Shown in pieces: positions 1 to 24,493 of a DNA stretch of 39,626 nt. Under the pieces are notes generated by a model. It searched no databases, had not been told where the DNA came from, and worked only from the letters and a program-made list of their open reading frames with translations. Position 1 is the stretch's first letter; every line of letters begins with the position of its first letter. The DNA lies in IMG/VR virus record IMGVR_UViG_3300044634_000818, positions 1 through 39,626 of that record, one strand, 5' to 3'. A program made the translations under genes and the position numbers. The stretch is from a virus. Lineage: Duplodnaviria > Caudoviricetes.

Positions 1-315
1 AATGGGCCTGAAGGATCTGGAGATGGATATAAATTTAGAGGAAGAGGATATATACAGTTGACAGGTAAAGAGAATTATACAAGATTTAACTCTACAGTTC
101 CTGAAGACATTATAGCTAATCCTGATTTAGTAGCAACTAAATATCCATTAGCATCAGCAGCATTCTTCTTTAACAGCAACAAGCTATGGGCTATCTGTGA
201 TAAAGGAGCTGACAGTGCTACAGTAACAGCAGTAACTAAACGTGTTAATGGAGGAACAATTGGTTTAGCTGATAGACAAAAACATTTTAACGAGTACTAT
301 AAACTATTATCATAA
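1..315 (+). CDS. GH19 (chitinase-like) endolysin, 5'-truncated by the window edge
   Basis: Frame is open from base 1: NGPEGSGDGYKFRGRGYIQLTGKENY...SAAFFF...VTKRVNGGTIGLADR, typical GH19 phage lysozyme motifs. Confidence 0.9.
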   Translation, partial: NGPEGSGDGYKFRGRGYIQLTGKENYTRFNSTVPEDIIANPDLVATKYPLASAAFFFNSNKLWAICDKGADSATVTAVTKRVNGGTIGLADRQKHFNEYYKLLS

Positions 316-446
316 TGGCTAAACCAAGCAAATCCTCTGAGTCTAAAAAGATTGTCTTTGGCGTGAGACGTAAAGGCAAACATCAAAAAACATTTGGCCC
401 TAAGGCTGCACCAAGTAAAAAGAAATACAGAGGACAGGGAAGATAA
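315..446 (+). CDS. Small basic phage protein (43 aa) ending KKKYRGQGR
   Basis: Manual translation MAKPSKSSESKKIVFGVRRKGKHQKTFGPKAAPSKKKYRGQGR; TAATG coupling to the endolysin stop. Confidence 0.7.
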   Translation: MAKPSKSSESKKIVFGVRRKGKHQKTFGPKAAPSKKKYRGQGR

Positions 447-476: not shown

Positions 477-998
477 ATGAAACTACTTTTCGCTATTACT
501 TTCTGGTTCACATCCACAGTGGTGGGATCAGCATTAATGATTCAGTCTGTATACATCTATAGACACTTTACAACTCCAGACAATCCTATCAAGGTGGCAC
601 CTGTTAACAACAGAATTGTCATGGGACAATTAGCAGGTAGTAGAAACCTGGCATTTGGAGTTAAAGGTATCATGGAAGAATTCTTACAAGAAGATGGCTA
701 TGATGTTAGTGATGAAGCAACTAAGGAGATCAAGATAGAATTGTTGTATCTAGATGTTCTCAAAACGCAAACTAATTTATCAGTATTCCATCGCAACTCT
801 GACGCTGTTGTCATACGTATGAGAGGACAGTTGGTTGAAGATGGTAAAGTAAAGAAGACAGTAATAGTAGAAGAATCTGCTGAGGAAGTATCAATGGCTG
901 CATTGGTTATAGACGAAGGTGGAAAGTTTAATCAAACCAATTTATCAAGTGCACTTAAAAAGTCCTGTAATACATTAGTTAATAAACTTCTCAAATGA
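477..998 (+). CDS. Membrane-anchored CsgG/TolB-N-like alpha/beta protein, paralogous to 3427..4152
   Basis: N-terminal hydrophobic segment; LAFGVKGIMEEFLQE resembles VGLGVTNIVVEYLEE and KFNQTNLSSALKKS resembles KFNQSTIGTTTKKA of the CsgG-like ORF. Confidence 0.55.
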   Translation: MKLLFAITFWFTSTVVGSALMIQSVYIYRHFTTPDNPIKVAPVNNRIVMGQLAGSRNLAFGVKGIMEEFLQEDGYDVSDEATKEIKIELLYLDVLKTQTNLSVFHRNSDAVVIRMRGQLVEDGKVKKTVIVEESAEEVSMAALVIDEGGKFNQTNLSSALKKSCNTLVNKLLK

Positions 999-2719
999 AA
1001 AAACTCTTATTCCTAGTTCTAACCTTAGTAACATTTAATACTCTTGGTCAAAACGTTAAATTAAAACTTGGCTCTGACTCTACTAAAGTTGATATTGCTG
1101 GTGGCGTTATTGACAAAGGTGATGAGTTCATTGTTAACGTAGACCTGAATGGTAATGGTAACACTACTGCTCGCTCACTCTACTTTGATTTTGAATTCAA
1201 CAACGCTGCGTTTGAATTTGTTTCTGTTGCACACACTGGTACTGGTGGTAATGGTGGTGTTCTTCCTGCAGGATCTAGTATAGATCTTACAAACTATTTA
1301 TATCCTGGTTATACTTGGGTGGCTAACGCTAATAACAATACAACCAATGGTAATGCTAACTATCAGAATGCTGCTTATGCTTTCACATCTGGTGGTCCTA
1401 AGACTATCATGCGTGTGTATTTGAACTGGGCATCTCCTAATGCTTTACCATTTGCTGCATATAGTCCATTACTTAAGCTTCGTTTTAGATTAAAAACTAC
1501 AGCTGTTGGTAACTCCTGGGATCCTATAAAGATGAACTTTGGTGCTGCGTTTAATCAAGATGGTTCTACTGGTGCTACGTTAATGGAGGTTCCTCTAACT
1601 ACAATCATTACACAGAATCCTAACGCTACTAAACTTGTTAATGCTACAGTAGCATTAAGTAGTGCGTTGAATCCTGCTTACACTAAGGTGGCGTTTGTTA
1701 ATGCAACTACTAACCAAGGACCTTTATTTGATGTAACATCTAATGGTACTGTTAGCATTGTTGACTCATCACTTGCACCTAATACTCAGTATAAGATCAT
1801 GGTAATGTATAACATGGATCATATCCAAGCATTATACAACGCTGGTATTACAACATCTGATTACACAGCTGCACAGTCTGAGTTTATATCACAGAACTTA
1901 GATGGTACATTTAAGAACACAGTTATCACTAGTGGTGCTGGATATAAAGCTGCAGATGTTAATAGAAGTGGTAAGCTTGATGGTGGTGACTTAACTAGAT
2001 TATTTGCACAAGTAGTAAGTGTAGATCAATTAGTTGTACTTCCTGCTGGATATACAGCTGGATCTAATGGATACATGAGCTTCATGACATTTAAATCATC
2101 TGATTATAACGCTGCTACACCTGCTGATTGGCTTACTCGATTCCCTGTAGGACCTACACAGTATGTATATACTACTCCTGCTCAACGTGGTACACCAGAA
2201 ACGATTAACATTAGCTACTTATTGTTTGGTGACATAAATAAATCTAGTTCATCTACAGTTACACAAAATGGATCTTTAGTATTGAACAGAAGACTTGCAG
2301 TTAATCCTATTAGTGTAAGCTTAACAAACGCTGTAGTTACATCTAATTCAATTGAGATCCCTGTAAAAGTTTCCACAAATGGAAACAAAGTAGAAGCTTT
2401 ACAATTCCAATTCTCTTATGACACAAGTAAGTTGAAGTTTGAAGAGTTGAAGAACGAGATGCCTAACAACTGGCATGTGTTTGCTAACAAAGGTGAAGGA
2501 TATATTAAGTTTGGTGCATTAGATCAGAACCTTAAGACTCCTGTAGAAGGTGAGTTCACTCCATTCAAGTTACGCTTCACAGCATTACAGAATGGACTAG
2601 ACATCAATACATTTATTAGGGTTAGTCCTATCATGGATGCTGCTGACGCTAAAGGATCACAACTACCTATTAACATGAATACAGATAAAATTAAACTTAC
2701 AGGATACAATAACTTCTAA
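995..2719 (+). CDS. Secreted cohesin-dockerin-cohesin-like surface protein
   Basis: Sec signal peptide; cohesin-like segments (GDEFIVNVDL...YFDFEFNNAAFEFVSV; IEIPVKVS...ALQFQFSYDTSKLKFEEL); dockerin/EF-hand-like ADVNRSGKLDGGDL and GDIN. Confidence 0.7.
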   Translation: MKKLLFLVLTLVTFNTLGQNVKLKLGSDSTKVDIAGGVIDKGDEFIVNVDLNGNGNTTARSLYFDFEFNNAAFEFVSVAHTGTGGNGGVLPAGSSIDLTNYLYPGYTWVANANNNTTNGNANYQNAAYAFTSGGPKTIMRVYLNWASPNALPFAAYSPLLKLRFRLKTTAVGNSWDPIKMNFGAAFNQDGSTGATLMEVPLTTIITQNPNATKLVNATVALSSALNPAYTKVAFVNATTNQGPLFDVTSNGTVSIVDSSLAPNTQYKIMVMYNMDHIQALYNAGITTSDYTAAQSEFISQNLDGTFKNTVITSGAGYKAADVNRSGKLDGGDLTRLFAQVVSVDQLVVLPAGYTAGSNGYMSFMTFKSSDYNAATPADWLTRFPVGPTQYVYTTPAQRGTPETINISYLLFGDINKSSSSTVTQNGSLVLNRRLAVNPISVSLTNAVVTSNSIEIPVKVSTNGNKVEALQFQFSYDTSKLKFEELKNEMPNNWHVFANKGEGYIKFGALDQNLKTPVEGEFTPFKLRFTALQNGLDINTFIRVSPIMDAADAKGSQLPINMNTDKIKLTGYNNF

Positions 2720-2724
2720 CCACT

Positions 2725-3087
2725 ATGAGACAAGCATTAGTATTTATATTGTTCATTTTTCTAACACTTGCATGTTCTGATTTAGAACAATTTGAGAGCA
2801 CTCCAATAAATCTAGGTGCAAAAGCATCTAACACACAAATTTTGAGCGTTGTGTCTCAAGGTGTTAAGGCTACTATTACATACAACTTAACAGTGGGAGC
2901 TAAGTATTCTGTACAAGTGTACGAGTTTGGTAAGACAGAACCAACCAAGACTCTTCCTTTAACAGCTGAGGAAGAGATTGTAACTAAAGTGTATGACTTC
3001 AAAGACCTACAAGATGGTATCTATGATCTTACACTTACTGATGTAGCTGGTGTATCTATTAAAAAACCTTTAATCATTAAACGATAA
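2725..3087 (+). CDS. Lipoprotein with a T9SS C-terminal sorting domain (Ig-like) pattern
   Basis: Lipobox LTLA-C followed by acidic residues; SVQVYEFG...YDFKDLQDGIYDLTL...KKPLIIKR resembles a type A CTD. Confidence 0.55.
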   Translation: MRQALVFILFIFLTLACSDLEQFESTPINLGAKASNTQILSVVSQGVKATITYNLTVGAKYSVQVYEFGKTEPTKTLPLTAEEEIVTKVYDFKDLQDGIYDLTLTDVAGVSIKKPLIIKR

Positions 3088-3398
3088 TGTCAGAAGAACA
3101 AAATGATGGTACTTGGTCAGGGTTGGTCAAGACTATAGTAGGAACTGTAGGAACAATTGTAACAGCTGGTGGTGCTTACATAGGCTCACAGATGTTTGGT
3201 GGTGGAGAAGAGAAAGCTGAAGCTGCTCCTGCTGCTACCACAACTCCTGCACCTGTAATCAATATCACTACTAATAACTCTCAACAACAAGCAGCATCTG
3301 CTGGAGGCACAAAAGTTATTGAGCGTGTGGTAGAAAAACCTGCTAAACCTAAGGCTAAGACAGAAAAAGAGGCTTTGCAAGAAGAGCCTAAGTGGTAA
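3087..3398 (+). CDS. Small membrane protein with a Pro/Ala/Thr-rich linker
   Basis: Gly-rich hydrophobic segment IVGTVGTIVTAGGAYIG; TAATG coupling. Confidence 0.7.
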   Translation: MSEEQNDGTWSGLVKTIVGTVGTIVTAGGAYIGSQMFGGGEEKAEAAPAATTTPAPVINITTNNSQQQAASAGGTKVIERVVEKPAKPKAKTEKEALQEEPKW

Positions 3399-3426
3399 CG
3401 AAACCCCCTCTTAATGAGAAAACTAT

Positions 3427-4152
3427 ATGAAGAAATTAAGCTTTTTATTCAGTTTATTATTGAGTGTATTACTAACGTACAGCGTTAGTGGTCAGATTGC
3501 TACAACTAAGACAGAATCTTACACAGCTTCATTTGAAAAGAAGATCAACATAGACTCATTGATGGATTATGATGGCCCAACCATTCCTATTCAACTCTTA
3601 TCTCTTGGTATCAATGAAGACGTCTATACTTCTTATCCAGAACTCAAGGACAAACGAGTGGGTCTTGGTGTTACTAATATAGTTGTAGAGTACCTAGAGG
3701 AAACTAATAGGTTCATATTCACTGAAGACAAAGCTGAGATCAAGAATAGAATGGTCAAACAATTCCAGGCATCACAGTCTGGGATAACTCAAGATAAATT
3801 AGATGGACGTGGTAAGATACGCCTAGCTAAATATTTTGTATACATTGAGGTGTATGACTTTTCTGTTTCTGAAGACGAATCATTATCTTTGAAAGGTAAT
3901 GTAAAGCAAACTGTGGTAACACGACTAGGTCTACAGGTCAAATTTGTAGACGCTGAGACTGGAGCTTACTTCACTGGTTCAGGTTTGGGCACAGCTCAAA
4001 CTACTAGAGAAGCAACATTGATGAACGATGCTAACTTTACTGATGTTAAGTTTAATCAATCCACCATTGGCACAACGACTAAGAAGGCACTTGAAGATGC
4101 TGCTAGCAAGATTGTGGTAAGGATGATAAAAAAGAAAATATTCACTAAATAA
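3427..4152 (+). CDS. csgG: CsgG/HfaB-family (curli transport channel-like) protein
   Basis: Signal peptide; IVVEYLEETNRFIFTE and RLGLQVKFVDAETG match the CsgG family pattern (L..sgrF.vvER; v.lrlvDv.TG). Confidence 0.7.
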   Translation: MKKLSFLFSLLLSVLLTYSVSGQIATTKTESYTASFEKKINIDSLMDYDGPTIPIQLLSLGINEDVYTSYPELKDKRVGLGVTNIVVEYLEETNRFIFTEDKAEIKNRMVKQFQASQSGITQDKLDGRGKIRLAKYFVYIEVYDFSVSEDESLSLKGNVKQTVVTRLGLQVKFVDAETGAYFTGSGLGTAQTTREATLMNDANFTDVKFNQSTIGTTTKKALEDAASKIVVRMIKKKIFTK

Positions 4153-4161
4153 ATAAAACCA

Positions 4162-4500
4162 ATGTTAGAAAAACTAATCATTGCTGGTTCGATTGCATTA
4201 GTTGCATCGATCTACCCTGCTATTAAGATATATCAGGGAGCCAAGATACCTATGTATCAAACTCGTATCTCTAATCTAGAACACAAACTAGAAGTTATTA
4301 AAGTAACAGAAAGCGATCCTGCAGCACGTTACGTAAAGATTTCTAAGGTTGAAGGTAAGATCTTCAAACTACGTGGCAAGATCAAAGAGCGTCAGAAGAT
4401 TAAAGCTATGGAAGCTAAATGGGATTATCAAGATGAGATGTTAAAGTTGAAGCGTTCACAAGTTTCTATTGACTCTACTCTTAAGCTTGAACCTAAGTAG
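4162..4500 (+). CDS. Membrane-anchored coiled-coil protein
   Basis: N-terminal TM segment (LIIAGSIALVASIYP) followed by basic heptad-rich helices. Confidence 0.7.
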   Translation: MLEKLIIAGSIALVASIYPAIKIYQGAKIPMYQTRISNLEHKLEVIKVTESDPAARYVKISKVEGKIFKLRGKIKERQKIKAMEAKWDYQDEMLKLKRSQVSIDSTLKLEPK

Positions 4501-5669
4501 TGAAATGGTTATTGACTGTTACATTACTACTGATGTGGAACTTGTGCGATGCACAGGTTCTTACACAGATTTATGTAGATCCATGTAATGGTCAAGTACT
4601 CACTGTAGTTGTTCCTATTAGTAATGGGACAGTTACAATTGTTTATAGAGGTAAGGCTAAGGTAGTTACAGCAAATGACATAACGTCAGGAGCTTTAACA
4701 GCGTGGATCAATATGATCAACTCTACACCTTGTCCACAAACAACTACAGCTACAACCCTTGTTGTAACACAGGCAGTTGCTCAAGCTACACAGCAAGCAA
4801 CTCAACAGGCTACAGCTCAGGCAACACAAGCTGCTACAGCTGCTGCAACTAGTAGTGCTACTAGTAGTGCTACAAGTGCAGCTACCTCATCAGCAGTTGC
4901 TTCAACACCAACACCTGCTCCTGCAGCGAGCCCATCATCTAGCAGTAGTTCTTCTACTAGTAGTGAGACTAAGAGTGAGAGTAGTTCAGAGAGTAAAACA
5001 GAAAGTAAATCAGAAGAGAAGTCAGAAAGCAAAAGTGAATCTAAAGAGAAAAAGAGTGATGATAAAAAGTCTTCTAAATCTTCCAGCAAGGCTGCTGCTA
5101 AAGTTAATCCTATTGTGTATAGTTCTGATCTTACTGTTCTCAGTGGACCTGATGTTCCTCTCAGTGCTATTATATCATTGGGTGCGTCACAATCCTCACT
5201 CCTTGGGAACGTGTCTTATGGACTTACCTCTATGATATGGAGTTCCTTTAATCAGTTTGCTCTATCAAGTAGATACACAAGGATGGGTAAGGTGATAAAG
5301 AACTTTGGTTTGACAGGAGTATATCTACAAGGTAATACAATAGCGTTTGCTACAGCTGCTGCTATCAAACCAATAGGTAAAGGAGTTACAGGTTTCAACT
5401 ACGCTCTTACATATACAGGTGAGTGGGGCCATGGATTGATGGGCTTCTACACTAGACCATTTAGAGTAAATAAGTACTTATCGATGTCCCCAGACATCTA
5501 TGTTTCCAACTCTTTGACAAAAGATTTTGGTATACTAACAGGCTCTGGATTTGATGTATCACTTAGTAAAAGGTTTAGATTTAACTGTGGACTAAAGGTT
5601 AGCTTGAATACAAATCCTGCTGTACCTATAACATACATGGGTATGATAGGTACCAAGATCAATCTCTAA
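4500..5669 (+). CDS. Secreted protein with a low-complexity stalk and a putative C-terminal outer-membrane beta-barrel
   Basis: GTG start; signal peptide; small Cys-pair domain; QA/T/S and S-E-K repeat linker; C-terminal ~185 aa of alternating Gly/aromatic beta strands ending GTKINL. Confidence 0.65.
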   Translation: MKWLLTVTLLLMWNLCDAQVLTQIYVDPCNGQVLTVVVPISNGTVTIVYRGKAKVVTANDITSGALTAWINMINSTPCPQTTTATTLVVTQAVAQATQQATQQATAQATQAATAAATSSATSSATSAATSSAVASTPTPAPAASPSSSSSSSTSSETKSESSSESKTESKSEEKSESKSESKEKKSDDKKSSKSSSKAAAKVNPIVYSSDLTVLSGPDVPLSAIISLGASQSSLLGNVSYGLTSMIWSSFNQFALSSRYTRMGKVIKNFGLTGVYLQGNTIAFATAAAIKPIGKGVTGFNYALTYTGEWGHGLMGFYTRPFRVNKYLSMSPDIYVSNSLTKDFGILTGSGFDVSLSKRFRFNCGLKVSLNTNPAVPITYMGMIGTKINL

Positions 5670-5684
5670 TCAATTTGATTAGAG
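5664..5684. repeat. Perfect 10-1-10 palindrome at the end of the envelope module
   Basis: CTCTAATCAA-T-TTGATTAGAG. Confidence 0.7.
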
Positions 5685-5777: not shown

Positions 5778-5990
5778 ATGGCTATATCATCTAGACCTAC
5801 AGGGCAAGATCCAGTCTCACAACAATTGTGGAACATTTCTAAGCAAATGGAGCAATTGATTGGACAAGTGGGAGCTGTAGTTAGAAACACTGCAGGATTA
5901 ACTACTAGTACTACAACAAGTAGCACTACATCTACTACTACGTCTACAAGTACATCTACTACGACTACAACAACAACTGCAGCTCCTTAA
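5778..5990 (+). CDS. Small protein with a mucin-like Thr/Ser tail ending TTTTAAP
   Basis: Helical N-terminus plus ~26-residue T/S tract with mixed Thr codons. Confidence 0.8.
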   Translation: MAISSRPTGQDPVSQQLWNISKQMEQLIGQVGAVVRNTAGLTTSTTTSSTTSTTTSTSTSTTTTTTTAAP

Positions 5991-6015: not shown

Positions 6016-7032
6016 ATGAAGGAATTAAAGTTTATCTGTGCTCAACCAGATGATACCTACTACACTTGGCAGGTACATCTATGGTTAGAAAGCTTAAGAA
6101 ACATTGGACATTCAGATAAGGCTATTGTACTTATCTTTATCCCATCATTCAGAGAAAAGAACCAGAAGTGGCAACAGATCGTAGATCTCTACCCAGAAGC
6201 AAAGTTCGAATTCTATAAAGATCAGGATGGTGTAAGTCAGAAACTAGGAATCTATATTCCTGTTCTACGTCCATATGTTCTAATGCGTTATTGGCAAGAT
6301 CATCCAGACATGAAGAATCATGCTGTATTGTATTGTGACTCAGACGTATTGTTTACAGATAAGTTTAATGTTGACGCCTATATTAATGACGATATAAACT
6401 ATTTATCAGATACCAATAGCTACATCAACGCTTCATATTTTGACAGTAAGATACATCAAGTGCTTCCAGAAAGATTGGAAGCATATAAAGAACTAGATGT
6501 TCTTGAAGACATTGCCACTCAGTGTGGTATATCAAGAACAATAGCAGAAGCTAACAACGACCACTCAGGAGGTGCACAATATCTATTGAAGAATATTGAT
6601 GCTATGTTCTGGGAGAAGGTACTAAGAGATTGCATTACAATACGTAGTTATTTATTAAACATAAACAAACTATACTTCAAGGATGAATCTGCAGGCTTTC
6701 AAAGTTGGTGTGCTGACATGTGGGCTGTCCTCTGGGCTCTTTGGTTTAGAGGTGGGGTCACTAAGAATTTACCTGAAATGGAATTCTCTTGGTCGTCAGA
6801 TCCTATTGACAAAGTCCACAGGCTTGGCATCCTGCACAATGCAGGAATAGTAAACAAAAACATGGGTGACTACCCAGCATTTTATAAGGGTGAGTATATA
6901 ACTGGTAACGATCCATTTACTGATCCTCATTTAGAATATGTATTCAACGATGCAAGAGCACAAGAGAAAGGTACACACTACTATGTTGAGCAAATGATGA
7001 AACTTAAATTTAAGTATAAATTAAACTATTAA
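6016..7032 (+). CDS. GT-A fold glycosyltransferase resembling GT95 (HPAT) / GT96 (SERGT1) peptide O-glycosyltransferases
   Basis: DDTYYTWQ, YIPVLRPYVLMRYW, DxD motif YCDSD and WCADMW align in order with the remembered plant motifs Y..WQ, Y...N[RK]P....W, DAD/EPD and W..EMY. Confidence 0.7.
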   Translation: MKELKFICAQPDDTYYTWQVHLWLESLRNIGHSDKAIVLIFIPSFREKNQKWQQIVDLYPEAKFEFYKDQDGVSQKLGIYIPVLRPYVLMRYWQDHPDMKNHAVLYCDSDVLFTDKFNVDAYINDDINYLSDTNSYINASYFDSKIHQVLPERLEAYKELDVLEDIATQCGISRTIAEANNDHSGGAQYLLKNIDAMFWEKVLRDCITIRSYLLNINKLYFKDESAGFQSWCADMWAVLWALWFRGGVTKNLPEMEFSWSSDPIDKVHRLGILHNAGIVNKNMGDYPAFYKGEYITGNDPFTDPHLEYVFNDARAQEKGTHYYVEQMMKLKFKYKLNY

Positions 7033-7037
7033 TAAAA

Positions 7038-7283
7038 ATGGCAATTCAGAGAGATTTAAAAGCATTTGTTCGCTACGATGGTAGTGGAAGGGTTGTTGCA
7101 GGCAGCCTTATTCTGAGAAAGAACAAGCCAAAAGTGGGAAGATGGCAAGAGATTCCAGCATACGAGTGCTGTAATTATGTTCCTACAACTACGACTACAA
7201 CGTCTAGTACTTCTACGACTACTACCACTAGTACTAGTACGTCTACATCTACAACCACTACTACAACCACAGCAGCTCCTTAA
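7038..7283 (+). CDS. Thr/Ser-tailed protein, paralog A
   Basis: LKAFVRYDGSGRVVAGSLIL...WQEIPAYECCN plus ~29-residue T/S tract ending AAP. Confidence 0.85.
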   Translation: MAIQRDLKAFVRYDGSGRVVAGSLILRKNKPKVGRWQEIPAYECCNYVPTTTTTTSSTSTTTTTSTSTSTSTTTTTTTAAP

Positions 7284-7285
7284 TC

Positions 7286-7555
7286 ATGGCAAATAGCAAT
7301 AATCAATTGAAAGCATACGTTCGTTTCGATGGAACAGGACGTATTGTACCTAGCAGCTTAATCTTACAAAGATTTAAGCCTAAAGATGGTAATTGGCAAG
7401 AAATAGATGCAAAAGAATGTTGCAACTATATTCCTCCTACTACTACAACTACTAGTAGTTCTACAAGTACTACTACATCTACGTCAACGTCAACAAGTAC
7501 TACAACGTCAACATCTACTAGTACCACTACAACTACTACAACAGCAGCACCATAA
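7286..7555 (+). CDS. Thr/Ser-tailed protein, paralog B
   Basis: LKAYVRFDGTGRIVPSSLIL...WQEIDAKECCN plus ~35-residue T/S tract ending AAP. Confidence 0.85.
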   Translation: MANSNNQLKAYVRFDGTGRIVPSSLILQRFKPKDGNWQEIDAKECCNYIPPTTTTTSSSTSTTTSTSTSTSTTTSTSTSTTTTTTTAAP

Positions 7556-7968
7556 TGGCTAAATCATTATTCCCACAAGAAATGTTAAGTAAAGCAACTG
7601 GTAGCGAGCTCTCATTAGAGAGCATCGCTGCTAAGCTTACTTACTTTCATGAGCAATTACACTTGACTCACTGGCAAACAAAAAGCTATGCAGAACATCA
7701 AGCCACAGGAGCATTGTATGATTACGTACATGATTTCAAAGATGGATTGATTGAGAAGCTTATGGGCTATACAGGTAAGAGACCTGGAGCTTATAAAATA
7801 GAACCTCTTACAGACTGTACAGCTGAACAATGTGTATCAGATATAATGTCATTCGCATCATCATTAAAGATGTATGGTGAAAAGAATGCTTATCATGATG
7901 TATGTAACTTAGCTGATGCATTATCTGGTGAGGCAGCCAAAACTAAATACCTATTAACCTTGTCTTAA
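7555..7968 (+). CDS. Ferritin/Dps-like four-helix protein (DUF5856-like)
   Basis: LHLTHWQTKSYAEHQATGALYD...DGLIE and C-terminal KYLLTL resemble Dps-like ferroxidase motifs. Confidence 0.75.
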   Translation: MAKSLFPQEMLSKATGSELSLESIAAKLTYFHEQLHLTHWQTKSYAEHQATGALYDYVHDFKDGLIEKLMGYTGKRPGAYKIEPLTDCTAEQCVSDIMSFASSLKMYGEKNAYHDVCNLADALSGEAAKTKYLLTLS

Positions 7969-20591: not shown

Positions 20592-22082
20592 TTACACAAT
20601 AACTACACGACCACCAATAACTTGTTTCATGTCTTCAAGACTAGCTATAATCTTCTCCACAGTTTGAGGATTAATAGTAGGGAAGTTGAAGTTGTACTTC
20701 TTAGCCTCAGCTGCGAATCCTTCTTTAACTTTCTCTGCTAAGTTATCAAGCTCTTGGATAGCATAAGCATCATCAAGTTGCATAGTATCAAAGTCTAGAT
20801 CGTGTAAGATGGTAGTAGCTTCTTCACGTGGTACAGTCATGATTGGTAAATACTCATAACATCTACCTTTGTGCTGACCAATACCTACTACCTTCATAGG
20901 ATTGATTAACACTAACATAGACTGGTCACCACATCCTACATAATGAATCTGATCTGCAGTGAAGTGTAAACCTGCTGCTGCACAATCTTGTGTAGACCAG
21001 TTACACTCTTCCATAGGCATCTTGACAGGAACGCCTACACGAATGTCAAACGTCTTAGTCCAGTCATCAGTAAAACGATTCTCTGCACGATTAGGTAGGT
21101 CAAGATAAAGCTCTGTAAGTGTACCAAGATTTTCTCCATCGTGGTATACATCTTTTATCACTTCACCTTCTCCTTCACAGTTCCAACAAGTTTCAGAATC
21201 ACCATTATAACAATCATTGTATCCTTCAAAATCATCACCTTCCTCAGCAAAGACTGTTCCTGTTCCTTCACAAATACTACATGTTCCTTCTTCTTCATGC
21301 CATAAATCATCAGTGTGTACTAATGTATACTCACCATTTAGTAGGAATACATGATAGTTATCTGGACTCTTCTTCCACACAGCTTTAACCTTATTGTAAC
21401 TGTTACTTACAAAGTGTACAAGCTCTGCACCACCATGCAATGTAACTACGTTACGCAATGCAACAAAGAAACCTTGCTTAGTGATTCTGAAGCTGTTGTC
21501 TTTCAAGAAGCGAAACAACTCATCAGCTACCTCAGCACGTGGGTTCAAGCAACACCACATCCAGAAACGCTTCAAGCCTTCCCAACGCTCATTAACTTCT
21601 TCATTCCAGTCTTCTTGAAACAACATGATAAACTCCTCAATAAGAATCTGAGGCATGCTGCGATCAATACCTATCATGTACAAGGCACCATCACGCTCTT
21701 CAAACTCATCTTCAGCAAAATCCATTAATCTCTTGATACCTTGAGCTAATGCTGTGTTACGCTTAACTTCCTCTTCAAACTTACGTTTCTCTTCTAAACC
21801 TTCTGAAGAACTACAGATGGTAAACAATTCCATTTCAGTCTTTGCATTACGAGCAAATTGAAAATCAGTAAGATTAGCTGGATGTTTACTGATGATATTA
21901 CCATCATTCAAGATGATAGTTAACACATCATTAACAAACTTAATGTTTGAATATGGTTTAGCAAAGACGTTATGCTCTACGCTAAAATCAGATGGAGCTG
22001 TTGTGTCTTTCAACAACAATTCTGCCATCTTTGTGTCTCTTTCGATGAGAGACTTGAAAAACTCTAAACTTGTATTGTTCAT
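20592..22082 (-). CDS. rIIB: rIIB-like protein with an inserted DnaJ-type zinc finger
   Basis: ITKQGFFVALRNV, VKMP...C..GLH, INPMKVV, GRCYEY; downstream of rIIA; CSICEGTG and CWNCEGEG. Confidence 0.75.
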   Translation of the reverse strand: MNNTSLEFFKSLIERDTKMAELLLKDTTAPSDFSVEHNVFAKPYSNIKFVNDVLTIILNDGNIISKHPANLTDFQFARNAKTEMELFTICSSSEGLEEKRKFEEEVKRNTALAQGIKRLMDFAEDEFEERDGALYMIGIDRSMPQILIEEFIMLFQEDWNEEVNERWEGLKRFWMWCCLNPRAEVADELFRFLKDNSFRITKQGFFVALRNVVTLHGGAELVHFVSNSYNKVKAVWKKSPDNYHVFLLNGEYTLVHTDDLWHEEEGTCSICEGTGTVFAEEGDDFEGYNDCYNGDSETCWNCEGEGEVIKDVYHDGENLGTLTELYLDLPNRAENRFTDDWTKTFDIRVGVPVKMPMEECNWSTQDCAAAGLHFTADQIHYVGCGDQSMLVLINPMKVVGIGQHKGRCYEYLPIMTVPREEATTILHDLDFDTMQLDDAYAIQELDNLAEKVKEGFAAEAKKYNFNFPTINPQTVEKIIASLEDMKQVIGGRVVIV

Positions 22083-22098
22083 TTTTGTGATTTTTGTA

Positions 22099-22136
22099 AG
22101 AATGTCCAGTTAATTGTGCAAAAAACTGGACATTCT
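22099..22136. repeat. Perfect 13-bp inverted repeat between rIIA and rIIB
   Basis: AGAATGTCCAGTT-N12-AACTGGACATTCT. Confidence 0.75.
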
Positions 22137-22174
22137 CTTGTTGAAATTGTTATTTAACTAATTAATACTCAGAC

Positions 22175-24493
22175 TCATGCAGCATCTGTTAAGATGTCTA
22201 CCAGCTCCTGATTTACCTTAATGGTGAACCTGTAATTACCCTTAGCCATACGTGTTTTTTTGTAACGACACATATCTATAAGAACTTTCATCAAAGGGTC
22301 TTCACTACCTTTGTAACTACGCATGTGATAACAAATAGTTTCTATAAATGGAAACTTTGTAAGGATCTTGTCTACTTTCAATAACAGTGGATACATTTCT
22401 ACATCATACTTATTGTTTTCTCCAGCAAACTTATCAATATCAAACATTTCGCAAGTCTTAGATACACTGTAATCTACATAATACGTATCCTTAAATTTTA
22501 CTAACTTATCTACATAATATGAAAGATCAGGTAGTACATCACGCATTGCTGGTTTAGAATCAAATGTTGCACCATAAATAGCTTTCATTTTCTTGATGAG
22601 TCTAGCAGTAGCAATACGTCTGAATGGTTTGTTATCACCTTTCAAGAATGTTTCTACGTTCATAAAGTTATGAAGGTTGTACATCTCCAACACTTTAATC
22701 TCTCTATCAGACATAATCACTAAGTCTACATGACCTCTAAACATACCAAATAGATAATCTAATACAGCACGATCAGTTTCCTTACCATACACAGTGAGCT
22801 TCTTTCTTGCATGAAGAGTTTTACCACTTAGTATAATAGGAGTGAACTTAGCATTAGATCCTGTATGACGTTCAGGAATTTCAGCTATCTTACAGTTGAT
22901 ATCGCCTTTCTCTTTTACGCCACCATCCTTAGAAACTTTAGGCTTAGGTTTGTAGTTCTTAGCTTTGTCAGCAATGATCCATGCTTCTGGAATATCAATA
23001 GCGTCAACATCGATGAAGTCTGTAATTACTTTGTGGATACATCCTTGAAACTCTTTGATGATTGATCTCCATTGAACTCTAGGATAGTTGTACAACTTCA
23101 GCAAATCATGATAGCATGACATATCTGTGGTACCTACTAAGTGATTACTCTTACTCCAAGACTTTTCTTTAGAGAACAAAGTAAATGAGATTGTCTTTTT
23201 GACAAACTTAACATCCTTACCAGCATATATTTGTTTAAGATAACGACGTTTTCTGTCACCAAGTATACCTGTAAAGATACCAATCATGTTTCCACGAATC
23301 TGACCAAGTCTTAATTCTTTATCCCAACGACCTTTACACTCACGCATAGTACCTCTATATCGACTGAGCTCATACTTAGCTTCATATTCGTTAAGTAGAA
23401 AGTCTCTAATTTTGTAAAGAGTTTCTGCAGTGAAGTAAGTACATCCTAACAATGTTGGTTTACGTTGCTGAATAGTAGCACGTTTGATAATGTCAGTTAT
23501 CTCAAGATTGTCACCATTGTGGTCCTTGATATATCTAAACTCTGTACTAAAGTGTTCAATAGCTGTACGTACATCATCAGTGTCTACAATAGACTCATTG
23601 TACTTAACCATAAAGTCATTAGCCAGAACACTGATCTTTTTAAGAATGATTTGCTTAGCCTCTTGCGTATATCGTAAAGATTCTCTGTTAGGTGTAGGAA
23701 AGATACCATCTGTCAAAGAGAATCTAAGACCCATCTTCATATCAATACGAGCTATACCAAGCTTATCAAAGTCTAATGGATAATACACATTATCTAAACA
23801 AATATGTAGATGACGATCTGTTGCTATCTCAGAGATTTGATAGTGCTCACTTCTGAAGATATTGAACTGATTATTCATACCTTCTACATCAAAGTATACG
23901 CTCTCAAAGTAAGCTAGCTGCTCTTTGATCTTCATCTTAAACTCAGTTGAATCACTCCACTTAACAGGAATAGTAATCTTAACACCATTAGGTTTATCTG
24001 TTGGTGATTCGTGCAACAAGTCAATAGAATTGACTTCTTCTCCCTCATACATCATATACTTACGCTCTACACCATTCTTACGTGCTGTAAAATAAAAGCT
24101 AGATGCATAAGCTAGTGGAGCTTTGAAGCCCAAGCCCATCATGCCTAATTCTGTGGTAGAATCACGCTTTGTACTCTTACCATACTTACTAATGATGTTC
24201 TCTACATCATATGCATCCAAACCAATACCAAAGTCCTCAACAGAGAACTCATAGTTGTTACTCACCTTGGTGAACTTAACAACAATAGGTGTATTAACAC
24301 CAGCTCTACGATGTGAGTCTAGTGCATTACTAGCACACTCTCGTATCGTAGATCCAATAGAATCTGAATAAAGATTCTTACTCAACATTTGCATTAGGAC
24401 CTGAGCTGAGTCAAGGTCCAATGACATACCAATAGTGCCCTGTGCACTACCTACTTCATGTATTAAAGATTGTGTTTGTTTTTCTAAGATCAT
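22175..24493 (-). CDS. rIIA: rIIA-like protein with an N-terminal GHKL (Hsp90-like) ATPase
   Basis: LYSD...IRECASNALDSH, VEDFGIGL, STKR, GMMGLGFK, PNRESL. Confidence 0.85.
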   Translation of the reverse strand: MILEKQTQSLIHEVGSAQGTIGMSLDLDSAQVLMQMLSKNLYSDSIGSTIRECASNALDSHRRAGVNTPIVVKFTKVSNNYEFSVEDFGIGLDAYDVENIISKYGKSTKRDSTTELGMMGLGFKAPLAYASSFYFTARKNGVERKYMMYEGEEVNSIDLLHESPTDKPNGVKITIPVKWSDSTEFKMKIKEQLAYFESVYFDVEGMNNQFNIFRSEHYQISEIATDRHLHICLDNVYYPLDFDKLGIARIDMKMGLRFSLTDGIFPTPNRESLRYTQEAKQIILKKISVLANDFMVKYNESIVDTDDVRTAIEHFSTEFRYIKDHNGDNLEITDIIKRATIQQRKPTLLGCTYFTAETLYKIRDFLLNEYEAKYELSRYRGTMRECKGRWDKELRLGQIRGNMIGIFTGILGDRKRRYLKQIYAGKDVKFVKKTISFTLFSKEKSWSKSNHLVGTTDMSCYHDLLKLYNYPRVQWRSIIKEFQGCIHKVITDFIDVDAIDIPEAWIIADKAKNYKPKPKVSKDGGVKEKGDINCKIAEIPERHTGSNAKFTPIILSGKTLHARKKLTVYGKETDRAVLDYLFGMFRGHVDLVIMSDREIKVLEMYNLHNFMNVETFLKGDNKPFRRIATARLIKKMKAIYGATFDSKPAMRDVLPDLSYYVDKLVKFKDTYYVDYSVSKTCEMFDIDKFAGENNKYDVEMYPLLLKVDKILTKFPFIETICYHMRSYKGSEDPLMKVLIDMCRYKKTRMAKGNYRFTIKVNQELVDILTDAA

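Follow-up and report, generated by a model that had tools for sequence, protein, structure and literature searches.

We examined a 39,626-nucleotide stretch of viral DNA (IMG/VR record IMGVR_UViG_3300044634_000818; Duplodnaviria, Caudoviricetes), hereafter the window, which is a 39.6-kb linear record approximately 35% complete. Behind its endolysin gene, seven consecutive open reading frames (ORFs) occupy positions 477–5669 of the + strand; we name them g1 to g7 in order and refer to the set as the block (Table 1). Neighboring ORFs overlap or stand 5–28 nt apart, and each of g1–g7 begins with an export or membrane signal, as judged from its sequence. The N-terminal 15-mer is hydrophobic [Kyte-Doolittle (KD) hydropathy ≥ 1.7] in 5/7 block ORFs vs 1/47 other ORFs of the window, and the 15-mers of g4 and g7 score 1.59, under that threshold. 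Coordinates, strand and N-terminal hydrophobicity agree with a preliminary description of this DNA, which had noted seven consecutive, mostly coupled ORFs with export or anchor signals. None of g1–g7 is named by PHROG or NCBIfam. Six of the seven genes form a conserved unit that phages carry optionally, and we tentatively propose that their products coat the surface of the infected Bacteroidota cell.

Searching IMG/VR with g5 gave 334 relatives (6,010 protein clusters also matched); the best 80 of 334 were kept, and 58 loci had enough flanking sequence. In all 58 of these, g5 is accompanied by g1, g2, g4 and g7; g3 or a related lipoprotein is present in 46/58. A second set, anchored on g1 and restricted to long downstream flanks (n = 48), contained g2 in 48, g4 in 48, g7 in 47 and g5 in 46 loci; many contigs are common to both sets and near-copies are included, so the counts are not independent. 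The proposed unit of seven genes shrinks to a core of six. Because g6 (4162–4500) occurs in 9/58 loci and has a homologue in a block-free sister phage (G405), it is, by sequence, a lineage-specific passenger. The genes flanking the block are wholly different between carrier groups, which include a 254-kb jumbo-phage-like contig and a cultured carrier, Flavobacterium phage vB_FspM_immuto (MW353175, gp12–gp19; hereafter immuto). All block genes are under purifying selection, with a median ratio of nonsynonymous to synonymous substitution rates (16 chosen pairs) of 0.044 for g5, the lowest, and 0.07–0.22 for the others; g5 is the most conserved gene of the block.

The block is optional. Sister phages were chosen by rIIA, independently of the block, and the 24 longest of 74 records were searched; two controls chosen by g5 were excluded from the count. 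g5 is present in 4/24 sisters and in 4/17 of those at least 90% complete, leaving 13/17 near-complete sisters without it. In G405, the closest sister, genes for holin-like, spanin-like and lysin proteins are retained, as are the basic 43-residue ORF that follows the lysin and the g6 homologue, and other membrane genes fill the slot. Ten block-free sisters were examined: five carry an alternative envelope set and five carry neither that set nor the block. The alternative set (L297:4737-6450, which is G405, and L298, L299, L303, L305) encodes a coiled-coil membrane protein, a helical lipoprotein and a secreted protein that is anchored at its C-terminus. We judged this set spanin-like on inspection, with no support from Pfam; none of the block-bearing loci contained its membrane or lipoprotein member. 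Because sisters carry the block, the alternative set or neither, the position behind the lysin appears to be a landing place for envelope cassettes.

Table 1. Genes and sequence features in and beside the block.
Feature	Positions	Strand	Basis
g1, shortened g5 paralogue with probable uncleaved membrane anchor	477..998	+	Profile comparison, Atlas fold, complex prediction
g2, secreted scaffold, cohesin and dockerin-like loops	995..2719	+	Pfam, residue conservation
g3, lipoprotein, single fold like a type IX secretion sorting domain	2725..3087	+	Family Pfam matches, hhalign
g4, small single-span membrane protein	3087..3398	+	Alignment, 58/58 loci
g5, CsgG-fold protein, cleavable signal peptide	3427..4152	+	AF2, Foldseek, VIA, hhalign
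g6, N-terminally anchored basic helical protein, passenger	4162..4500	+	9/58 loci
g7, signal peptide, linker and predicted 12-stranded barrel	4500..5669	+	AF2, structure matches
9-bp hairpin, stop codon of 43-residue ORF in loop	434..457	.	Similar hairpin and T run in only part of relatives
Perfect 10-1-10 inverted repeat across g7 stop	5664..5684	.	No + strand T run
GH19 (glycoside hydrolase family 19) endolysin, 3' end (context, outside block)	1..315	+	Pfam Glyco_hydro_19; PHROG endolysin
43-residue basic Lys/Arg-rich ORF ending KKYRGQGR (context)	315..446	+	ORF overlooked in the preliminary description

The AlphaFold2 (AF2) model of mature g5 [predicted local distance difference test (pLDDT) 80.5] matches CsgG, the Eco curli (type VIII) channel (PF03783), better than any other structure (Foldseek 4uv2, E 5.9e-8; VIA 6lqh, Z 13.5, root-mean-square deviation (rmsd) 3.2, 180 aligned). 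The likeness is one of the same α/β fold over nearly the whole chain; the next VIA matches are CT253, XCC0632 and PelC (Z 9.3–9.9). In hhalign the g5 family aligns with Eco (Escherichia coli) CsgG at 89.3% over 220 columns. g5 itself has no match to PF03783 or any other Pfam family at E ≤ 0.1, and among 36 near-full-length distant relatives picked from 150 listed, 18 match Pfam CsgG, 14 of them above the cut-off. The CsgG fold of g5 is thus confirmed by modeled structure. A PDB sequence search with the g5, g1 and g2 profiles gave nothing significant. Other organisms have fusions of distant g5-like domains with caspase-family peptidases or Ser/Thr kinases (P0212, P0227, P0241, P0236, P0242), and no viral locus was found for P0140.

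A membrane-spanning CsgG pore, as the preliminary description had it, is not upheld. g5 has a cleavable signal peptide and no Cys, nor is any Cys conserved in the alignment, so that, unlike curli CsgG, it lacks a lipobox; in a distant clade, with g5 39–42% identical, g5 is lipidated in 7/7. Hairpin 1, in the 84/94 g5 sequences that could be parsed, is always 20 residues long (84/84) vs 25 in CsgG, bears a near-invariant S-E-D-E with acids on both faces, and averages 0.12 aromatic residues vs 3 in CsgG. The second segment has 18–21 residues vs 29, and AF2 gives no hairpin there; the two hairpin segments compare as 20+20 vs 25+29 residues. CsgF (PF10614) and the curlins CsgA/B (PF07012) were found in 0/5 records, with the Eco control positive, in line with the earlier observation that csgA and csgB are missing. 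Because the hairpins are short and acidic and both a lipid anchor and curli genes are lacking, a curli-type pore is unlikely, and a ring lying wholly in the periplasm is likely the better fit to the model. PelC and PqiC-like proteins lack CsgG-type membrane segments, and PelC forms a periplasmic ring under a barrel (PMC13631591, PMC12141448).

g1 is a shortened paralogue of g5 that lacks the N-terminal arm and middle helix. The g1 and g5 families align in hhalign at 87.8% (E 3e-6) with a widened g5 alignment, the comparison before widening having been weak (26.9%), and distant g1 homologues match the g1 and g5 profiles alike (~1e-12 to 1e-17). g1 gave no direct alignment with Eco CsgG, so that of the two CsgG-like proteins first described g5 stands by structure and g1 is CsgG-like via g5 only. 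The g1 Atlas fold lies near Lipoprotein_16 (TM 0.71, template-modeling score), and g1 N-termini alternate across the family between cleavable and anchor types. g1 is predicted to bind g5: the complex scores 0.64 vs 0.00 for the best of 3 controls, against a mark reached by 116/157 solved pairs and 2/215 mismatched pairs. Contacts agree between runs at 93% or better, the partner has a pLDDT of 78 or more, and the predicted interface comprises the g5 N-terminal arm and an edge strand. This pass may stem from resemblance to the solved CsgG subunit interface.

g7 is predicted to be a closed 12-stranded outer-membrane barrel, which agrees with the β-barrel protein of the preliminary description. 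Residues 200–389 form 12 strands in the AF2 model (pLDDT 90.6) and match KdgM (Z 21.4, rmsd 1.4), NalP (Z 20.5), autotransporter barrels (Z ~20) and FapF (Z 19.4), the top Z being tied or close across the KdgM/autotransporter/FapF class. The barrel is preceded by a signal peptide, a small Cys-paired N-terminal domain (invariant C29 and C78) and an Ala/Ser/Glu/Lys-rich linker. Distant versions of 328 residues do without the long linker, so the long stalk of the outer-membrane protein suggested earlier is not universal. Some carriers hold a second, linker-free barrel related to g7 (L149:14704-15603, L080:5291-6181, L084:13507-14328). g4 has a flexible tail, a conserved P-V-I-N-I segment and a C-terminal Trp in the alignment.

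The secreted scaffold g2 comprises a signal peptide, an N-terminal domain that is probably cohesin-like, dockerin-like Ca-binding loops (residues 283–332 and 412–420) and a C-terminal cohesin (PF00963, 28 bits vs a cut-off of 24.1), with no sorting tail. The N-terminal domain aligns weakly with the C-terminal cohesin (44.5%). Because a dockerin regular expression found no match in 19+4 of 86 loci, column conservation was used instead: loop residues D289, D321, N323, D329, D332, G412 and D413 are conserved at 93–100%, one whole loop of the dockerin-like repeat being conserved and the second apparently split. Within the g2 family (n = 44), Pfam finds a cohesin in 29/44 members and a type IX secretion system (T9SS) tail in 9/44. 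The dockerin-like region is also an insertion site, with a shared ~110-residue domain or a PA14 domain inside it (L045:4537-6582, L129:10492-12618, L062:4284-6359, L135:3966-6566, L056:6643-7782).

The lipoprotein g3 resembles a T9SS sorting domain, a likeness unnamed in the preliminary description. The T9SS exports tailed proteins and anchors them on the surface (PMC5445135). Por_Secre_tail matches 19/39 g3 family members at E ≤ 0.1 (best 7e-6), and the family aligns with the tails fused to g2 in other loci at 96.7% (hhalign, E 5e-10). g3 itself matches no tail model (PF18962/TIGR04183); one family member exceeds the TIGR cut-off. g3 keeps the C-terminal G-x-Y and a K-x-x-x-x-K-type end, in the part reported to be the most conserved of sorting tails (PMC5445135), and the Y-P-N-P tail start is lost in most members. 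Cys17 is invariant in the family, and acidic residues outnumber basic ones after the Cys in 71/79 members, counted as net charge; in Bacteroidota surface lipoproteins an acidic export signal, with K-(D/E)2 as its consensus, lies right after the Cys (PMC5080379).

Across 98 distinct loci, the sorting tail is fused to g2 in 13 and carried by a separate lipoprotein in 85, with both in 0 and neither in 0; the separate count takes in another family of lipoproteins, which profile comparison links to g3 (85%). The state changed at least 3 times on the g5 tree, and fused tails exceed the TIGR04183 cut-off in 5/5 tested. The layout of T9SS type A cargo, with signal peptide and tail on one chain, is thus seen in 13/98 loci and in immuto gp15, and not in g2 of the window. 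In the distant clade, a PorV/PorQ-family gene directly follows the tailed scaffold in 6/7 loci (the seventh is cut), and g7 and g1 come next; the PorV-family genes exceed the NF033709 cut-off in 3/3 tested, and no PorV-like gene was found in the nearer block loci. Three of the PorV/PorQ-family barrels (L318:6592-7437, L316:5646-6521, L320:6298-7155) directly follow a 950-residue cohesin/dockerin protein with a T9SS tail. A protein that combines a C-type-lectin motif with a g2-like dockerin part is present in 16/86 distinct full loci; Pfam matches of the lectin-motif proteins were weak in the 3 tested, and Lectin_C matches immuto gp13 at E 3e-15. PA14 proteins are added in two loci (E 7e-13 in L056).

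We infer a Bacteroidota host because immuto, the sole cultured carrier, infects Flavobacterium sp. LMO8, because 4/6 GTDB matches sit in bins of Bacteroidota metagenome-assembled genomes, and because the block uses a T9SS tail. That the block coats the surface of such a cell during infection, for adhesion, is the reading we favor, with confidence somewhat short of even. All products carry export or membrane signals, and g1, g2, g4, g5 and g7 are co-inherited with g3 or a fused tail. g5 is predicted to oligomerize as a CsgG-fold ring confined to the periplasm, with g1 joining side by side; g7 would provide the outer-membrane barrel, in a ring-under-barrel layout that may resemble PelBC, and g4 with the g1 anchor would tie the complex to the inner membrane. 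Copies of g2 would be linked into a lattice by Ca-dependent dockerin-cohesin contacts, and the host type IX secretion machinery would bring this lattice to the surface or hold it there. In relatives the tail on g2, in some with a PorV-family barrel of their own, would serve this step; here g3 would act in trans as an adaptor or anchor. Interchangeable sugar-binding heads (C-type lectin, PA14) may plug in via the dockerin-like domain in a fifth of relatives, and because the window holds no such head, the coat here would be g2 alone. Such a coat would most probably hold the cell on glycan-rich particles or neighboring hosts until burst. In its fullest form, a phage-only machine in which a non-pore CsgG-fold hetero-ring under a barrel, a self-polymerizing coat, plug-in lectins and a lipoprotein tail hijacking type IX secretion in trans turn the infected cell into a sticky trap and so bring the progeny to a new host, the proposal is doubtful.

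Several points weigh against a coat. Its putative localization and function are read from sequence and predicted structures, and the complex prediction covers the g5-g1 pair. The dockerin match of g2 reaches 20.7 bits in Pfam, under the cut-off, and a dockerin match is found in just 1/44 family members; in this profile search the cohesin of the cohesin/dockerin protein first described held, and the dockerin fell short. g2 is tailless in 85/98 loci, we know of no route by which a lipid-anchored tail exports a partner, and g2 may stay periplasmic. The window phage lacks a fused tail as well as a lectin head. In 70/86 full loci, the window included, no lectin-motif protein lies within the fetched flanks, so that adhesion by lectins could be the general role only if g2 did the binding. 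Hairpin 1 of g5 has a mean hydropathy of −0.45, which is not below the −0.53 of CsgG; since hydropathy does not discriminate, the case for a ring without a pore rests on hairpin length, aromatics and charge pattern. Finally, the coat leaves the link to the lysis genes unexplained except via shared late timing.

An alternative in which the tail is itself the active part is unlikely. Here a tethered tail (g3, or a tailed g2 on the phage PorV) would occupy the T9SS and gliding machinery as a decoy while the scaffold covers receptors, barring rival phages and keeping progeny from re-adsorbing to debris. Such masking needs no lectin head and suits a tail that is present in one form or other at every locus and, in g3, retains the conserved C-terminal end of sorting tails (PMC5445135). 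In Flavobacterium, resistance to phages traces for the most part to genes of the T9SS and of gliding (PMC9804748, bioRxiv 2020.10.02.323337), although those data concern other phages and other species, and superinfection exclusion has been suggested for phage T9SS cargo (PMC7468147). A decoy would, however, make the ring, the barrel and the swappable sugar-binding heads superfluous, and both the loss of the Y-P-N-P start in most g3 members and the failure of g3 itself to match a tail model speak against it.

The genomic slot suggests a lysis accessory, a trans-envelope complex that breaks the outer membrane or times the burst, replacing spanins or working beside them. A lysin lies within the flank of 50/58 loci, a holin-like gene lies inside the block in 12/58, the spanin-like-looking set fills the same slot in 5/10 block-free sisters, and a role in lysis has been proposed for the CsgG of phage Melnitz (PMC9004378). 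We nevertheless consider this role quite unlikely. The block is dispensable for lysis because most near-complete sisters (13/17) lack it, so an essential part in outer-membrane lysis, which the preliminary description had listed among possible roles without calling it essential, is not supported; moreover, a spanin-like gene is retained in 42/58 block loci, the immuto block sits among replication genes, and lectin heads, T9SS tails and PorV would make no sense for lysis. Strict replacement of spanins by the block was rejected, as 5/10 block-free sisters lack the alternative set.

Very unlikely is a private channel, in which g5 as a CsgG-type pore, or ring and barrel as a conduit, would serve nutrient uptake or unfolded-protein export. 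CsgG is the best structural match of g5, g7 resembles small porins and the amyloid exporter FapF, the fixed length of hairpin 1 and its near-invariant S-E-D-E (84/84) are what a selective lumen might show, and uptake has been proposed for pelagiphage CsgG (PMC7029224, PMC9599517). Against a channel stand the 0/5 result for curlin and CsgF, the short hairpins without an aromatic girdle, the lack of a lipid anchor in this clade, and the lack of a transporter, binding protein or amyloid substrate among the in-block genes. The envelope apparatus of pore, scaffold and outer-membrane protein put forward earlier survives as a phage-encoded, co-conserved CsgG-fold/cohesin/barrel set, and loses its pore. 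That the products are virion components or decoration can practically be set aside: in many carriers the block comes last in the run of structural and lysis genes, but signal peptides, a lipobox and an outer-membrane barrel send its products to the envelope, and most sisters lack it.

Phage csgG/csgF clusters are known in pelagiphages and the methylophage Melnitz (PMC7029224, PMC9599517, PMC9004378). They resemble the block in that the phage encodes an envelope protein of the CsgG fold within an optional cluster that the host lacks, and the benefits proposed for them are the same as those considered here: sibling capture, exclusion, uptake and lysis. They differ in having CsgF, plus CsgA/B, FecR, a kinase and a cyclase (PMC9599517), and SAR11 or OM43 hosts, whereas the block, in phages of Bacteroidota, has cohesin-dockerin parts, a T9SS tail and a 12-stranded barrel and lacks CsgF and curlin. 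Unlike the curli system, it has no CsgA/B/F, and g5 has a shortened paralogue as partner and a separate barrel. PelBC (9h80, 5t10; PMC12141448) has a PelC fold related to g5 (VIA Z 9.3–9.7) and a periplasmic ring under an outer-membrane barrel, and the block may work alike. PelC, however, is a lipoprotein dodecamer, PelB is a 16-stranded barrel with tetratricopeptide repeats, and a polysaccharide synthase feeds the complex; the block has a 12-stranded barrel and no synthase, and its g5 ring and ring-barrel contact are hypothetical. Cryophage T9SS type A cargo (PMC7468147) likewise combines a phage-borne host sorting tail with variable sugar-related domains; it consists of single variable genes, and the accessible part of that paper names no cohesin, ring, barrel or PorV partner.

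The cultured relative immuto shares homologues of g2 (g2-like), g4, g5 (55% identity), g7 and g1 in gp12–gp19, and differs in that the block is sited among replication genes, the tail is fused to a cohesin, and a lectin head and a secreted nuclease are present. Its block has been annotated gene by gene only. Cellulosomes are cohesin-dockerin scaffolds that carry enzymes, and the block recalls them in its cohesin above cut-off and its dockerin-like Ca loops. immuto splits the parts into cohesin-tail, cohesin-dockerin and lectin-dockerin proteins, as in cellulosome-type scaffolds; the block differs in having no attached enzymes and a dockerin-like domain broken by an insertion site.

The Bacteroidota genomes searched yielded no source for the block. 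Besides the seed, 26/400 of them have CsgG-family genes, all distant; no g1, g2, g4 or g7 homologue was found at E < 0.05 in the 14 genomes whose neighborhoods were read, and these CsgG-family genes have other neighbors. Searches of Bacteroidota genomes gave 0/300 for g1, 1 weak partial match for the g7 barrel and 5 weak partial matches for g2. An origin as a bacterial operon was rejected for the genomes sampled, the full set being found in none. A literature search, with most subscription journals and supplements outside its coverage, found no description of the block.

The boundaries of the block are less sharp than first described. The hairpin taken for a terminator at 434–460 scores as one on the − strand only, contains the stop codon of the 43-residue ORF, is patchy in relatives and is gone where that ORF directly abuts g1; it is possibly a weak terminator or processing site. 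The palindrome at 5664–5684 is a perfect repeat only in the window and lacks a T run on the + strand; the closest relatives have an imperfect version and most relatives none, so that it is poorly conserved as a boundary. No match to a Bacteroidota-type promoter consensus was found upstream of the block. In one metatranscriptome, 0.06 of the words were present and two 151-base contigs matched g3/g4 exactly at depth 2; these contigs show neither transcription nor habitat. Between g4 and g5, many relatives encode a membrane protein of two helices whose tail is acidic (32/58 loci; L004:7426-8004 and 37 other loci), and insertions of a holin-like gene there are likewise common (L044:3639-3926). Of 103 loci, 6 have a secreted nuclease and 8 a lipase inside the block or immediately behind it.

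Upstream, contig L001 (identical to the window) holds the full endolysin gene, which adds a peptidoglycan-binding domain. The 43-residue ORF satisfies a strict motif criterion in 46/64 distinct spacers between lysin and g1, stands beside the lysin also in relatives without the block, and has no PHROG or Pfam match. Downstream on the + strand, short ORFs at 5778–5990 and 7038–7555 have a conserved motif at the N-terminus and end in long Thr/Ser tails, which are likely glycosylation sites; between them, 6016–7032 encodes a 338-residue PHROG 4417 protein with a weak glycosyltransferase match, and this string is kept in sister phages with and without the block. A Ferritin/Dps-like protein (DUF5856, PHROG 858) follows at 7555–7968 (+). 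The replication genes of the window lie on the − strand (DNA polymerase, primase, helicases, rIIA/rIIB, ribonucleotide reductase), the rIIA/rIIB-like pair at 20592–24493 although the head module of a close relative is non-T4. That relative, complete at 114 kb, has a terminase-portal-major-head string, whose order we take to be crAss-like, and very large structural proteins; in GenBank its head protein has a single match, a distant one (27%).

Every part of the block is a known fold, and the set is without counterpart in the Bacteroidota genomes and without description in the literature that we searched. Because the block is common, optional, spread over phage groups that are not related and subject to purifying selection, it should confer a real advantage outside core replication. 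The cultured pair of immuto and Flavobacterium sp. LMO8 makes the block testable now. If coating is true, it would offer a direct test of the sibling-capture and exclusion ideas that arose from marine phage curli genes, and it would affect the aggregation of polysaccharide-degrading lake bacteria. A T9SS tail acting from a separate lipoprotein, if true, would be a new principle for the T9SS.

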